Assembly (NCBI GenBank): GCA_037147375.1
Contig: JBAWVI010000012.1
Location: 1 to 14,962, forward strand
Reading direction: 5' to 3'
Length of the DNA: 14,962 nt
From: an archaeon
GTDB lineage: Archaea > Iainarchaeota > Iainarchaeia > Iainarchaeales > CSSED10-239
Made by a program: the position numbers and the translations under genes. The notes under the pieces are model-generated. The model saw nothing but the letters and a program-made list of their open reading frames with translations. It did not search any database and was not told where the DNA came from. Positions 9,023 to 14,962 of this stretch are shown in pieces; within the stretch, counting starts at the first letter, position 1; each line of letters starts with the position of its first letter.

Positions 9023-11533
9023 CTATTCCTTATAATCAGTAATTCCTTTTTGTTCTTTAATTTTTCTTGGATTCTTTGAAGATGGAGATTTCTCAGGTGT
9101 AATTGAGATTTGTTTATTTGAAGAATCAATTTTTAAGAATACATCTTCCTCCAAAGCCTTCTGAATAATAAGTGCGTTTTTAATTACGTTATCAGAAATA
9201 CCAGCCATTTTTGCAACCTGAATACCATAACTTTTGTTTATTCCACCAACCATTAGTTTATGATAGAAACGAAGACCAGAACCTTCTTCTTCTGCAGTTA
9301 CATGATAATTTGTTATTCCTTCATATTTATCCTGCATCTTGTTTAGTATATGATAATGAGTTGCAACTAAAGTCTTACATTTAGTTTCATTATTTAATTG
9401 CTCAACAATTGCCCATGCTAAACTTAATCCATCATAGGTACTTGTTCCTCTTCCAATTTCATCAAGTATTACAAACGAATTACTTGTTGCGTGATTAAGG
9501 ATATAAGCAACTTCTGACATTTCAACAAGGAAAGTACTTTGACCATGAAGAATATCATCTGATGCTCCAACTCTTGTAAATACAGCATCAACAAGTCCTA
9601 TTTCTGAATCGTTTGCTGGAATAAATGAACCCATCTGTCCAAGAATAATAGCAAGACATACACTTCGCATGTAACTACTTTTACCAGCCATATTTGGACC
9701 AGTTATTATCATAGTTCTATTATTATTAGTTAATTCACAATCATTTGGTATGAAATCAACAAGTGTTTCAATTATAGGGTGCCTTAAATCTTTAAAATAA
9801 ACTTTATTAGAATTTGTTAATTTAGGTCTAACATAATTATGAGAGATTGCAGTTTTTGCATGAGAACAATAAACATCTAATTTACCAAGTAGTTTTGAAA
9901 TTACTTGTATTTGGTCTTGGAATTTGATTGTAAACTTACAAACATCTAAAAAAATATTATATTCAAGTTCTATTCTTTTATCTTCTGAATTTAAATATAT
10001 TCCTTCTTTTTCTATTAATTCTTTTGTTGTAAATCTCTCTGCATTAACTAATGTTTGTTTTCTTTCAAAATAATCAGGAACTGTTTTAAGTTGAGCTTTT
10101 GGAACTTCAATATAATAACCATATACTTTATTGTATTTAAGTTTAAGTGATTTAATATCGGTTTCATTTCTAAGTCTAGCTTCAAATTCAGTTACCCATG
10201 AATCAATGAATTTATGTGTGTTTATTAAGTCAGATAATTCTTTTGAATAATTTGGTTTTATGAATTTACCTTCTCTAATACTAAATGGAGGGTCATCAAC
10301 TATTGATTCATCTAGTACTTTTCTTAATTCTTCTAGATCTAATAAATTTATTTTTATTTCTTTTAAATTTATGGTGTGTACATTAGAAAGGTTGGATTTA
10401 ATTTTTGGAATTATAGATAAACTTTGACGAAGAGAAACTAAATCTCTAGGGGATGCATTTCCAAATCCAATTTTACTTATTATTCTATCAAGATCACTCA
10501 CGTATGATAAATCACTAGCTGTGGTTTCAAGTAAAGAATAATCATCAACAAATTCAGTAACTGAATCTTGTATATTTATTACTTCTTGTTTATCAAGAAG
10601 TGGGTGAAGTGCATCAAAATAAAGTTTTCTAAAACCCATAGCTGTTTTAGTTTTATTAATTAAATTAAATAACGAATCTTTATGTGTATTATCTTGAAGA
10701 TTAGTTATGAGCTCTAAATTTCTTACTGTTTTTTTATCAAGTTTTAAATATTTATTTGAATCAAGTTGTTTAATTGAATTAATATATTTTAATTCAGAAA
10801 ATTGAGTTTCTTTTAAATATTTTAATGCATTATATGCAGAAACATAAATCTCTGGTCTGCTATTCATTCCAAAAGAATCTAGAGTTTTTAAATTAAAATG
10901 CTTTTTTAATTCTTCTTCGGAAAGACCATAATCTAAATTATCAGTGTAATTAATTATAGTGTGAGGTATTATTTTTTTAATATTATCAATAGTATCTGGA
11001 AATTTTAAAATGTTTTTAGTTAAAACTAATTCTTTTGGTTTTATTAAGCTTAATTCATTTAAAAGATCATTTATTGTACTAAAAAAACCAATTTTAAATT
11101 CTCCAGTTGTGATATCAACTATTGAAAAACCTAGTGATTCTTTTATTTGAGATATTGAACAGAGAAAATTATTTTCATAAGATTCAGAAAATAGGGTGCT
11201 TGGAGTAATTACTCTTGTTACTGCTCTCTTTACAATACCAACTGCAAGTTTTGGATCTTCTATCTGTTCGCAGATGACTACCTTCTTGCCAGCCTTAATT
11301 AGTTTATTTATATATGGATCTATTGAGTGATATGGAATTCCTGCAAGTGGTGCTTCTGTTTCTCCCTTACCTCTCTTTGTTAAGGTTATATTTAGTATTA
11401 AGGATGCGATTTTAGCATCATCATAAAACATTTCATAAAAGTCTCCTGCTCGAAAAAGTAAGATGCCATCAGGATATTCTTTTTTAGTTGCAATGTATTG
11501 TTTCATCATTGGGGTTAATATTCTTCCTTCCAT
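9023..11533 (-). CDS. mutS: DNA mismatch repair protein MutS (MutS1 type)
   Basis: 836 aa. Mismatch-binding motif GDFYEMF, Walker A GPNMAGKSSYMRS, Walker B ILDEIGRGTSTYDG, THYH, and the C-terminal HTH SYGIQVAKMAGI. The stop lies 11 nt upstream of the mutL ATG, with GTGAT between them, so the two form an operon. Confidence 0.95.
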   Translation of the reverse strand: MEGRILTPMMKQYIATKKEYPDGILLFRAGDFYEMFYDDAKIASLILNITLTKRGKGETEAPLAGIPYHSIDPYINKLIKAGKKVVICEQIEDPKLAVGIVKRAVTRVITPSTLFSESYENNFLCSISQIKESLGFSIVDITTGEFKIGFFSTINDLLNELSLIKPKELVLTKNILKFPDTIDNIKKIIPHTIINYTDNLDYGLSEEELKKHFNLKTLDSFGMNSRPEIYVSAYNALKYLKETQFSELKYINSIKQLDSNKYLKLDKKTVRNLELITNLQDNTHKDSLFNLINKTKTAMGFRKLYFDALHPLLDKQEVINIQDSVTEFVDDYSLLETTASDLSYVSDLDRIISKIGFGNASPRDLVSLRQSLSIIPKIKSNLSNVHTINLKEIKINLLDLEELRKVLDESIVDDPPFSIREGKFIKPNYSKELSDLINTHKFIDSWVTEFEARLRNETDIKSLKLKYNKVYGYYIEVPKAQLKTVPDYFERKQTLVNAERFTTKELIEKEGIYLNSEDKRIELEYNIFLDVCKFTIKFQDQIQVISKLLGKLDVYCSHAKTAISHNYVRPKLTNSNKVYFKDLRHPIIETLVDFIPNDCELTNNNRTMIITGPNMAGKSSYMRSVCLAIILGQMGSFIPANDSEIGLVDAVFTRVGASDDILHGQSTFLVEMSEVAYILNHATSNSFVILDEIGRGTSTYDGLSLAWAIVEQLNNETKCKTLVATHYHILNKMQDKYEGITNYHVTAEEEGSGLRFYHKLMVGGINKSYGIQVAKMAGISDNVIKNALIIQKALEEDVFLKIDSSNKQISITPEKSPSSKNPRKIKEQKGITDYKE

Positions 11534-13121: not shown

Positions 13122-13219
13122 AAGTACCTTTTATATATATTTTGGTAGCATTAATAGATATTTAGTAACTCTCTTTTTAATAATTAAATATTATTAAAGA
13201 TAATCAATCGAAAATAATT

Positions 13220-13294
13220 AGCGGGGTGGGGCAGCCTGGAGTGCCCGCCGGGCTCATAACCCGGAGGTCGATGGTTCAAATCCATCCCCCGCTA
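13220..13294 (+). tRNA. Initiator tRNA-Met (anticodon CAU), 75 nt
   Basis: Hand-folded cloverleaf: AGCGGGG TG GGGC AGCCTGGAGT GCCC G CCGGG CTCATAA CCCGG AGGTC GATGG TTCAAAT CCATC CCCCGCT A. The A1:U72 pair and three consecutive G:C pairs closing the anticodon loop are archaeal/eukaryal initiator hallmarks. Confidence 0.9.
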
Positions 13295-13312
13295 TATTTC
13301 TAATTTTTATTT
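13295..13312 (+). terminator. Oligo-T tract immediately 3' of tRNA-iMet (TATTTCTAATTTTTATTT)
   Basis: Archaeal RNA polymerase terminates at oligo-T runs, and a TTTTT run lies at 13304-13308, directly after the tRNA. A 7-bp hairpin ACCAAAT/ATTTGGT (13315-13321 / 13332-13338) follows. Confidence 0.4.
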
Positions 13313-13336
13313 AAACCAAATTATTAATTTTATTTG

Positions 13337-13905
13337 GTAATTACTACATCAACAAGCAATTTCTGTTATATTTGTTGGACACTATTTGCTAAAATCATTT
13401 TTGATGGTTAAAGATATTAAAACACCTTAAATCATAAAAAAAGCACAAAATAACCTAATAAGTTGCATTAGTGGCTTTTTTAGCCAAATAAATACAAAAT
13501 AAACCAAAAAAAATTATTAAAATAACTATTTTTTATAGTAATTACTTAAAAACTACAGTAATTACTTAAAATTTGGTTTAAAATAAGCAAGAAAAACACA
13601 AACATATACATAAAATAAATATATACTAAAATTCAAATAAATTTAAATTTCAGAGCAACACAAAAAACAAATAAATAGTTATGTCTAATTAATGGTAATT
13701 ACCATAATTACCAAAACCAGTGTTAAGTAATTACTGTGCGTACAGAAACCTTTATAATAATTACGGTAATTACTATATAGGATAAGTTATGAATATAAAA
13801 GAAATATTTAAAGGATTTACAAATTTATTTAAATCTAAGGATAAAGTTAAATTTGAAATTAATAATAAAGAATCAAATGGTAATTACTATAATGAACGTA
13901 ATTAC
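13337..13905. repeat. Array of the perfect palindrome GTAATTAC (8 exact copies plus 2 ATAATTAC variants)
   Basis: Exact copies start at 13337, 13538, 13558, 13695, 13727, 13766, 13880 and 13898. ATAATTAC variants start at 13704 and 13757. Several copies extend to 10-bp palindromes: AGTAATTACT at 13537, 13557 and 13726; GGTAATTACC at 13694; CGTAATTACG at 13897. AGTAATTACTTAAAA is a 15-nt direct repeat with a 20-bp period (13537, 13557). Confidence 0.85.
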
Positions 13906-14373
13906 GAAAGAGAAATTGAAAATAATGAAAATATAGTAGCTGATAGAATAAATAAAGATGAAATAAATTTCGAAAAGCTTAAAAAAATATCAGAACACAC
14001 AGCGATATATAATGAAAAACAAACAACAGAGATGATTACAGAAGAAAGAAGATCTCAAAATATAATAACTAATACATTAATAAATAATGCAAAAGAAAAT
14101 ATAAGTGTCAGATCAGTAACCATAGAAGAACTAAAGAACGAAATAAATACAATTTGGGACATACTAAAAATAAAAGAAAATACACAAGCAGAGCATATAA
14201 TTAAATCCACACCAGCAGATAAGTGGGTTACAATGGATGAAATAAGGCACAACATAAAAATACAATTTAATGTTGAATACTCTTCAATGTTTTTACCTAA
14301 CGGGTTAAGAAGCCTTTCAATGTTGAGCTGGTTTGTTTCGGTAAATCGTTTGCTTTTGTCTTCAAGTATCTGA
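13789..14373 (+). CDS. Orphan hypothetical protein. The native part is about 13789-14280; the remaining codons are read-through into compositionally foreign DNA.
   Basis: ATG is preceded by AGGA (13779-13782). About 164 stop-free, K/E/N-rich codons match the local AT-rich composition (MNIKEIFKGF...ADKWVTMDEIRHNIKIQFNVEY). After about 14280 the frame continues by chance across the antisense of the RmuC-like gene. No family recognised. Confidence 0.45.
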   Translation: MNIKEIFKGFTNLFKSKDKVKFEINNKESNGNYYNERNYEREIENNENIVADRINKDEINFEKLKKISEHTAIYNEKQTTEMITEERRSQNIITNTLINNAKENISVRSVTIEELKNEINTIWDILKIKENTQAEHIIKSTPADKWVTMDEIRHNIKIQFNVEYSSMFLPNGLRSLSMLSWFVSVNRLLLSSSI

Positions 14374-14669
14374 CCGGCAAGAAGCTTAAACTGATCGCTG
14401 AATTTTTTGCCGATATCCTCATAATCGCTTTTCTGGTTTTCGAGTTTTTCTTTAAGGAAGCCGTTTTCGGTCTGCATTACTGCAAGGTTTTTAATTAAAC
14501 CGGTTAGTTCAGAACGCCTTTTTTCAAGCTCTGTTTTAAGTTCGTTAAGCTGCCCGGTAAGTTCAAGCCGCGATTTTTCGGCATAGTTGTTCACGGTTCT
14601 GTTTCGGAACCAAAGCGCTGCCGCACCCGAAAGAACACCCACGGCAAAAATAATTATTTCGATTACCAT
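14055..14669 (-). CDS. rmuC: RmuC-family DNA recombination protein, N-terminal fragment only. The homology-supported part is about 14281-14669; codons from 14055 to about 14280 are read-through into the AT-rich DNA.
   Basis: It has an N-terminal TM helix (VIEIIIFAVGVLSGAAALWF), a coiled coil, and then DQFKLLAGQILEDKSKRFTETNQLNIERLLNPLGKNIEEY. That segment parallels E. coli RmuC QFENLANRIFEHSNRRVDEQNRQSLNSLLSPLREQLDGF. Full-length RmuC proteins are several hundred aa with a C-terminal nuclease-like domain, which is absent here. Codon usage (GCC, CCG, CTG, GGC) is unlike the rest of the window. Confidence 0.7.
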   Translation of the reverse strand: MVIEIIIFAVGVLSGAAALWFRNRTVNNYAEKSRLELTGQLNELKTELEKRRSELTGLIKNLAVMQTENGFLKEKLENQKSDYEDIGKKFSDQFKLLAGQILEDKSKRFTETNQLNIERLLNPLGKNIEEYSTLNCIFMLCLISSIVTHLSAGVDLIICSACVFSFIFSMSQIVFISFFSSSMVTDLTLIFSFALFINVLVIIF

Positions 14670-14758
14670 GCAAAAACCCGTTTTACTTTGTTGAAATTAC
14701 CGGTTTATAGTAGTTTTTCATTTGTACGGCATTTAACATCCCCCTGGGAATTAACTCT

Positions 14759-14807
14759 TCACTGTTCACTTTTCACTTTTCATTATTCATTATTCATTAT
14801 TCATTCA
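14759..14807. repeat. Seven tandem heptads TCAYTNT (TCACTGT TCACTTT TCACTTT TCATTAT TCATTAT TCATTAT TCATTCA)
   Basis: Read directly from the sequence. It lies in the intergenic region upstream (minus sense) of the RmuC-like start, within the GC-richer segment. Confidence 0.8.
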
Positions 14808-14826
14808 GCTGAAACATCCCCCCTGC

Positions 14827-14842
14827 CCCCCTTCGAAGGGGG
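14827..14842. terminator. Perfect 16-nt palindrome CCCCCTTCGAAGGGGG, possible terminator hairpin for the minus-strand partial gene to its right
   Basis: The G/C-rich stem lies 11 nt beyond the stop (14853-14855, minus strand) of the partial ORF. No clean U-tract follows on the minus strand, while an A/T-rich stretch follows on the plus strand. Confidence 0.35.
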
Positions 14843-14852
14843 AATTATTAGT

Positions 14853-14962
14853 TTATTTACTTCTTATTGAAAAGAAGAGATAAACCGCCACGGCAGCGCT
14901 TCCAATAGCTACAGCGGGTTCTACAATACTTGACCAGAAAGGCTCTGCAGGAACAACCCCCT
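14853..14962 (-). CDS. 3' end of an unidentified membrane protein gene (5' part lies beyond the window edge)
   Basis: Hand translation of the minus strand gives ...GVVPAEPFWSSIVEPAVAIGSAAVAVYLFFSIRSK*, with stop TAA at 14853-14855. It is a hydrophobic helix followed by a basic end. GC-rich codons match the RmuC-like segment. The ORF is short, so support is weak. Confidence 0.3.
   Translation of the reverse strand, partial: GVVPAEPFWSSIVEPAVAIGSAAVAVYLFFSIRSK

Follow-up and report, generated by a model that had tools for sequence, protein, structure and literature searches.

The stretch of DNA analysed here (contig JBAWVI010000012.1, 14,962 nucleotides, referred to throughout as the window) comes from an archaeon of the Iainarchaeota and carries, downstream of an initiator tRNA-Met gene, an array of the self-complementary octamer GTAATTAC that runs up to and into the 5' end of an unannotated open reading frame (ORF). 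We consider it probable, at roughly 60%, that the array consists of binding sites for the product of that ORF, a lineage-specific and weakly PadR-like winged-helix protein, which would use them for cooperative autorepression and to build a larger nucleoprotein complex. The octamers are enriched at this locus, conserved among relatives, helically phased and placed consistently with respect to the promoter, and those that fall within the gene are under selection at the DNA level.

Within the 569 bp from 13337 to 13905 there are eight exact copies of GTAATTAC and two ATAATTAC variants (Table 1), as an earlier note on this DNA had counted within about 570 bp; its five extensions to 10-bp palindromes are confirmed by reading the sequence, and its start-to-start spacings of 20, 9, 23, 30, 9 and 18 bp are correct. 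The whole window contains nine exact copies against 0.34 expected from 200 dinucleotide-preserving shuffles, among which the maximum was two copies and none (0/200) reached nine or more, and the local enrichment that had been proposed is upheld against these controls. The earlier chance rate of once per 20 kb should be lowered to about one per 44 kb, so that the enrichment is stronger than first estimated. The ninth copy, at 11205-11212, is the sole exact octamer outside the array and had been overlooked; it forms the codons V-I-T in MutS domain I and is explained by protein coding, since the related loci L199 and L200 carry it at the identical codon position, 328 nt from the start. Tandem repetition and chance in low-complexity sequence are ruled out by the lack of a constant period and by the excess over expectation, and the one unit that Tandem Repeats Finder reports is 9 bp long and present twice. 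A 25-nt inverted repeat (13555-13579 and 13713-13737, 84% complementary, with perfect 15-nt cores ACAGTAATTACTTAA and TTAAGTAATTACTGT) brackets a 133-bp A-rich spacer between the distal and promoter-proximal sites, so that the context of a site extends beyond the octamer and is oriented.

Fifteen related Iainarchaeota loci were examined, five of them from a scan of GTDB species, among which are Candidatus Iainarchaeum and Candidatus Forterrea multitransposorum, the latter with a complete genome, and the rest from metagenomes; they span C-terminal protein identities of 50–100% and G+C contents of 18–46%. Taking as the module the interval that starts at the tRNA end and closes 150 bp beyond the ORF stop codon, and as the outside the flanks of ±10 kb, we counted 99 exact octamers within the 17.3 kb of the module and 18 in 226.9 kb outside, which makes the module 72-fold denser. 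Array and ORF co-occur in 15/15 loci, with 5–13 sites in each, and relatives keeping the spacer without the motifs, the counter-case that the earlier note had envisaged, are not found among them. An unbiased k-mer screen of 11 of the 15 loci returned GTAATTAC and its overlapping words as the sole non-tRNA 8-mers that are multi-copy in every locus. The octamer is preceded by a purine in 79 of 99 copies and followed by a pyrimidine in 85 of 99, giving the consensus RGTAATTACY, and the motif stays constant over the full range of G+C content and down to 50% protein identity.

The layout of the sites recurs as well. Most related loci have a distal pair, spaced by 12–22 bp and situated 165–250 bp upstream of the ATG, and an A-rich spacer of 84–138 bp, followed by composites (ATAATTAC-N-GTAATTAC), two to four of them, at intervals of 30–32 bp. 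Extra sites are present in the 5' coding region in the window's clade and in L197, and at or after the stop codon in L012-L015, L168 and L200; an octamer within roughly 80 nt after the tRNA is present in L012, L015 and L075 and missing from several other loci. Between neighbouring sites no more than 45 bp apart (13 loci), all 72 spacings measure 9, 12–13, 18–23, 29–32 or 42 bp, none of them out of phase, with a resultant length of 0.65 at a period of 10.5 bp, the highest among the periods tested; taking 26 spacings, one per clade, the phasing has P = 0.0004, although the loci are homologous and the samples are not independent. The earlier suggestion of a same-face array suited to cooperative protein binding is thus supported in 13 related loci (R = 0.65).

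The position of the sites relative to the start of the gene is equally regular. In an ATG-anchored alignment of 14 loci, TTTA(A/T)AATAATTACgGTAATTAC is invariant in 11, and so is the predicted core promoter TTTAAAATAATTACgGTAATTAC, which ends 7–15 nt before the ATG (11/14 loci). In nearly all aligned loci the 17-bp composite (ATAATTAC-N-GTAATTAC) sits between the candidate TATA box and the start codon, which is the position from which characterised archaeal repressors act. The archaeal TATA box is centred approximately 26–27 nt upstream of the transcription start. In the clade of L012-L015, L168 and L200, where 7 nt separate the last octamer from the ATG, the TATA-like TTTAAAAT is centred about 26 nt upstream of that ATG, pointing to a leaderless transcript; in the window the corresponding distance to the ATG at 13789 is about 34 nt, from which a leader of some 8 nt would be predicted.

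Two octamers lie inside the gene, as had been noticed earlier, and occupy codons 31-33 and 37-39 of the ORF starting at 13789. They entail rare codons (in the window CGT accounts for 6% of Arg and TAC for 15.5% of Tyr codons), and L178, whose full-length product P0007 shares 71% identity, keeps the same octamer codons. Tripeptides compatible with an octamer (VIT or [GSRC]NY) number 67 in a set of 114 distinct linkers, against 7.1 ± 2.6 in shuffles, a roughly 9-fold excess. The excess of such tripeptides and the retention of rare codons together indicate that the linker tolerates embedded sites that are selected at the DNA level. Gene callers also extend the ORF upstream through the array (P0074, P0017, P0064, P0036 and P0139; L013 9653-9712), and the resulting false N-termini (HIITVITNLFKIITVITIY, ITVIT, SNYGNY) arise because array palindromes are translated.

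The full product of the gene, read in L001, a near-identical strain, has 206 amino acids, and the version in the window is without the last 42 amino acids of the DNA-binding domain. It had been called an orphan; in fact there are 90 homologue clusters, none of which has a Pfam domain or an informative name. A HMMER search of 1.84 billion representatives returned 37 clusters, of which 35 have E < 1e-10; the boundary of the family is therefore sharp, and no links from the array protein to other families were found in the same search. The family alignment has three parts: a conserved, Lys-rich N-terminal peptide of 15–20 amino acids (for example MNIKEIFKGFTNLFKSK and MGLLKFIKKIFSK), a linker of 0–110 amino acids that is rich in N, K, E and Q and conserved neither in length nor in sequence, and a C-terminal domain of about 85 amino acids. 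The C-terminal domain is extremely conserved, with 23 invariant columns; its recognition helix and wing are near-invariant, and every one of the 37 representative clusters shows the same motifs. The N-terminal peptide is computed to be amphipathic, its mean hydrophobic moment being 0.66 over 89 proteins against 0.47 in shuffles, and it presumably resembles the membrane-targeting helices of MinD, SepF or Noc type.

AlphaFold2 models the C-terminal domain with a predicted local distance difference test score (pLDDT) of about 90 for residues 120-203 (88–94 for residues 130-200) and the linker as disordered. From this model we are confident that the domain is a winged helix, consisting of three helices and a beta-hairpin wing. 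All Foldseek matches are winged-helix DNA binders (Fur/PerR, BlaI/MecI, PadR, ArsR/SmtB, STIV F93 and RosR). The relationship to PadR is faint at the sequence level: Pfam PadR (PF03551) is matched below threshold in 12 of 26 members, the best E being 0.014; the window and L001 proteins have no Pfam PadR match at E ≤ 0.01; and a comparison of PDB sequences with the family profile yields nothing even at E ≤ 10. A C-terminal dimerisation helix as in PadR is absent from the model, in which the wing is followed immediately by a short final strand (E200-202).

From these observations we infer that the adjacent protein is the binder, that binding represses its gene, and how many molecules might be involved. 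The protein is likely to be the cognate binder because array and gene co-occur in all 15 related loci and the invariance of the motif parallels that of the recognition helix and wing; the overlap of the proximal site with the predicted core promoter and the persistence of sites within the gene's own codons argue for it too. The functional unit would be the 17-bp composite, in which two octamers with centres 9 bp apart might suit a winged-helix dimer. Protein bound to the composite between TATA box and start would exclude TBP/TFB or RNA polymerase and so silence its own gene, while further sites on one face of the helix, at 30–32 bp (three helical turns) or 12–23 bp, would allow cooperative binding. 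The sites upstream, in linker codons or after the stop codon would probably permit looping or wrapping over 0.6–1.1 kb, enclosing the gene. The operator array imagined in the earlier note consequently survives as a putative control element of the adjacent ORF, given the composite between TATA box and start, and not as that of a repressor encoded by a mobile element.

Several considerations weigh against autorepression as the explanation. For a classical winged-helix dimer a palindrome of 8 bp is short, and the stoichiometry is therefore a guess. It is not obvious what purpose would be served by a regulator that binds essentially just around its own gene, and 5–13 sites exceed what autorepression needs. 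The conserved amphipathic peptide and the long disordered linker are unexplained by a simple repressor. The distribution of the motif is known from flanks of ±10 kb, and a different DNA-binding protein could be the true binder.

These difficulties give some purchase to a tentative alternative, in which the complex of protein and array is itself the functional entity (a centromere-like site, a tether or a domain boundary) and autorepression is a by-product, as it accompanies centromere function in plasmids. The winged helix might then coat the array while the Lys-rich amphipathic helix, on its flexible linker, anchors the complex to the membrane or to a partner, a mechanism that we hold no less tentatively. 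That the landmark is self-contained, with about 1 kb of coated DNA beside the tRNAi-Met tied to the membrane or division machinery and no dedicated motor ATPase, is a rather doubtful proposition. The number of sites (5–13), the 72-fold concentration of octamers on both sides of their own gene in a self-contained module, and the conservation of the N-terminal peptide in 89/89 members scored (moment 0.66 against 0.47) beside an unconserved linker would all fit this alternative; the amphipathic helix is however a computed property and could instead be an oligomerisation motif. The conserved neighbours, a PRC-barrel protein and XerA, are circumstantial support: PRC-barrel proteins function in archaeal cell division, but their genes are near-ubiquitous and often lie beside translation genes (bioRxiv 10.1101/2023.03.28.534520). 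In Forterrea the locus would be about 8% of the genome from the skew-predicted origin (PMC5905446), a likewise circumstantial argument that concerns one genome and assumes that the record starts at the origin; and in Thermococcus an SMC domain boundary depends on TrmBL2, a nucleoid protein with a winged helix (PMC11840125). As regards the partition or centromere-like role that had been proposed, its one half is found, in that the repeats cluster at, and overlap the promoter of, the gene for the presumed binder. The other half is lacking: no gene for a motor nucleoside triphosphatase (NTPase) of the kind used by ParABS, ParMRC, AspA-ParBA or SegAB is adjacent, and the convergent neighbour of about 198 amino acids has no match to a P-loop family or known fold.

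It is improbable that the sites are bound by another protein, whether a global regulator, a chromatin protein or the product of 1767-2072, with the ORF merely a regulated target. Scattered extra copies or pairs outside the module (in L073 and L197 at the Trm56 promoter, in L075 as a pair) would suit such a binder, and the 101-amino-acid protein of 1767-2072 has weak winged-helix, PadR and Sso10a-like matches, but nothing specific ties that protein to the array. Against any outside binder stand the 15/15 co-occurrence of array and ORF, with sites flanking and inside the gene, the persistence of octamers whatever sequence the linker codons take, and the parallel between an invariant motif and the invariant recognition helix of the ORF product. 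A replication origin, with the palindromes as initiator repeats around an A-rich unwinding element and the winged-helix protein as an origin-binding factor, is very improbable. Origin-binding proteins commonly use winged helices, inverted repeats flank the A-rich spacer of about 130 bp, and the tract is the longest non-coding stretch of the window; but the array protein is without an AAA+ domain, and the motif is, to our knowledge, unlike origin recognition box (ORB) or mini-ORB elements. There is, besides, no orc1/cdc6 gene within ±10 kb in L001, L073, L075 or L197-L200, and the complete Forterrea genome has a single skew-defined origin adjoining cdc6 (PMC5905446), while its array lies at about 770 kb of the 839.6-kb record CP045477.1, some 70 kb from the record start; the origin or iteron role that had been entertained is thus unlikely. 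The last alternative places the tract at the margin of a plasmid or virus that integrated at the tRNA and brought its own repressor and operator, iterons or partition site; it is barely credible. The adjoining tRNA gene, a tyrosine recombinase 2.3–3 kb away and a hypervariable patch just after the tRNA lent it some appeal, but gene order is identical across genera, the recombinase is XerA, the 3' end of the tRNA is not repeated within 7.3 kb downstream, and a scan of viral contigs found no homologue of the array protein. Conserved synteny, the identity of XerA and the missing attachment-site repeat effectively refute it, and comparison of the tRNA-iMet neighbourhood likewise disposes of the idea that the tract is an insertion, the module being present in 15/15 loci down to 50% identity.

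Table 1. Features of the array, its gene and their surroundings in the window (residue numbers refer to the 206-amino-acid protein)
Feature	Position	Strand	Details
Initiator tRNA-Met	13219..13295	+	CAT anticodon; A1:T72; GGG/CCC beside anticodon loop; ARAGORN, Rfam
Exact GTAATTAC octamers	starts 13337, 13538, 13558, 13695, 13727, 13766, 13880, 13898		
ATAATTAC variants	13704, 13757		each 9 bp from an exact copy
10-bp palindromes	13538, 13558, 13727 (AGTAATTACT); 13695 (GGTAATTACC); 13898 (CGTAATTACG)		
tRNA-proximal octamer GGTAATTACT	13337..13344		site counterpart about +25 to +75 after the tRNA in L012, L015, L075
Distal octamer pair	13538..13565		AGTAATTACTTAAAA twice, 20 bp apart
A-rich spacer, distal pair to proximal cluster	13566..13694		about 130 bp
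Predicted promoter-proximal operator cluster	13695..13773		
Composite GTAATTAC-C-ATAATTAC	13695-13711		in proximal cluster
Single octamer	13727-13734		in proximal cluster
Candidate TATA box TTTATAAT	13751..13758	+	3' end overlaps proximal composite
Composite ATAATTAC-G-GTAATTAC	13757-13773		in proximal cluster
Gene for predicted winged-helix protein, 5' part	13789..14279	+	491 nt (163.7 codons)
Two octamers within linker codons	13880..13905		GNY = GGT AAT TAC; RNY = CGT AAT TAC
Modelled helices	residues H133-140, H149-160, H171-179		AlphaFold2
Modelled strands	residues E183-188, E191-196		AlphaFold2
Foreign DNA joined by misassembly	14280..14962		last 683 bp, outside the feature

The genes of the window are archaeal and include Elp3, MutL, MutS, aTrm56, TFE, tRNA-Phe, two tRNA-Lys and a tRNA-Met with initiator features. 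An initiator-type tRNA-Met lies 325–496 bp upstream of the ORF start in 15/15 related loci, and the order MutL-MutS-tRNAs-Trm56-TFE-tRNAi-Met-array-ORF-ORF~200-PRC-XerA is kept in nearly all 15. The tyrosine recombinase nearby is the chromosomal XerA (NF040815, 277.7 bits against a cut-off of 220), at a distance of 2.3–3 kb. The neighbour of about 198 amino acids, convergent to the ORF (L001 11860-12456, minus strand), is conserved in all related loci and has 28 homologue clusters; AlphaFold2 models it confidently at a pLDDT of 88, the N-terminal half being ferredoxin-like and the C-terminal half helical. Pfam, NCBIfam and PDB sequences give no match to this neighbour, and no PDB fold matches it significantly. 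A second conserved element, the box TTYYTGGACA, is found at 13371..13381 on the plus strand; it is non-palindromic and lies outside the octamer family. It occurs 32–123 nt after the tRNAi-Met in 12/15 loci (including L011-L015, L168, L197-L199 and L075) and upstream of the tRNA in L073 and L091, and in L073 a 20-nt version flanks the whole module of tRNA, array and ORF. We rejected it as a dif site for XerA, as it has neither the 11-6-11 inverted-repeat form nor the TAA-N6-TTA core of archaeal dif. A search for structured RNA in the spacer gave tRNAs alone (Rfam, E ≤ 1), and a scan for promoters and terminators of bacterial type gave no signal above shuffles.

Comparison of strains shows L003 to be identical to the window across the array. 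All 14 differences between the window and L001 over 13296-14279 fall in a 68-bp patch at 13296-13363, within which the octamer at 13337 is intact; the patch may be a recombination tract, the difference counts being small. Composite sites are also found directly after a TATA-like box before the Trm56-TFE operon in L073 (8193-8210) and L197 (8312-8350), suggesting that in these two lineages the array protein could also control the general factor TFE. The window is without composite sites ahead of Trm56, and L075 is a further locus with an octamer pair outside the module.

Scanning viral contigs for triple octamers gave 57 matches, all of them unrelated tandem repeats, and none of these 57 contigs has a homologue of the array protein. 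Among the at least 120 matches listed in the equivalent metagenome scan, three loci (L091, L168 and L178) carry the gene and the remainder are tandem repeats or hairpin elements, a result that is no test of exclusivity. Apart from these three loci, triple GTAATTAC occurrences, which are common on viral and metagenome contigs, are regular tandem repeats or the tips of long hairpins and have no relation to the present array; the AT-rich contigs that bear them are possibly organellar. A literature search for GTAATTAC in archaea surfaced only Cren7 crystallisation oligonucleotides, nothing of relevance.

The 3' end of the window is chimeric. At 14279/14280 the G+C content jumps from about 0.21 to about 0.38; the 21-kb contig L001 (99.86% identity) matches the window to 14279 and then diverges, and contig L002 ends precisely at base 14279. 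On its minus strand the foreign segment encodes a truncated coiled-coil and transmembrane N-terminus with a weak RmuC match (E 5.7e-4). Because the contig is chimeric at this point, the annotated 194-amino-acid WCF78_01395 is a fusion artefact. The foreign segment also has heptamer tandem repeats at 14750-14805 (ACTTTTC about four times and TTCATTA about four times), followed by a G/C-rich hairpin at about 14815-14850.

These analyses define an unannotated and sharply bounded protein family, together with its probable motif, RGTAATTACY, and a conserved multi-site architecture. The DPANN archaea are uncultured and their gene regulation and chromosome organisation almost uncharted, and here they offer a pair of motif and protein that is directly testable in vitro. 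The putative binding sites are embedded in the codons of a disordered linker, where they are visible as GNY, RNY and VIT tripeptides, and false N-terminal extensions such as ITVIT matter for annotation. Should the tether or centromere reading prove true, the module would represent a new kind of archaeal chromosome-organising device.

Among the closest known systems are archaeal repressors. Ss-LrpB of Saccharolobus is reportedly an autoregulator with several phased operators, and MDR1, Phr and TrmB-family repressors bind between TATA box and start site. The array resembles these in having same-face palindromes in what would be the protein's own control region, one of which overlaps the candidate TATA box on its downstream side; binding there should block recruitment of the pre-initiation complex or the polymerase. 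It differs from them in that the protein, which combines an amphipathic N-terminal peptide with a long disordered linker, belongs to another family, without a Pfam or NCBIfam model, and in that there are 5–13 sites instead of one to three, some of them inside or after the gene. To PadR proteins the predicted winged-helix fold offers a likeness, with Foldseek matches that include PadR structures 8ioi and 5dym and a recognition helix of SLYPYLKTL type. A member of that family, AspA, the centromere adaptor of pNOB8, is said to bind a palindrome upstream of its own operon and to spread from it. The array protein differs from PadR and AspA in that its Pfam match is below threshold, its model has no C-terminal dimerisation helix and its locus has no ParA/ParB genes.

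Plasmid centromeres (ParR-parC of R1, omega and ParG) similarly consist of many short phased repeats that overlap the promoter of the binder gene, and here too the complex would be operator and higher-order structure at once. Their binders are however ribbon-helix-helix proteins with a co-encoded motor NTPase, whereas the gene described here is chromosomal and solitary and its repeats are palindromic. With the tethers Noc, at its binding sites (NBS), and RacA, at ram, the array protein would share the combination of a palindrome-specific DNA-binding domain and a terminal amphipathic or anchoring segment, both predicted in the present case. It is without the ParB/CTPase or MerR-like domains of those proteins; and while RacA sites cluster near the origin and Noc sites are dispersed, the array forms a single cluster of 1 kb.

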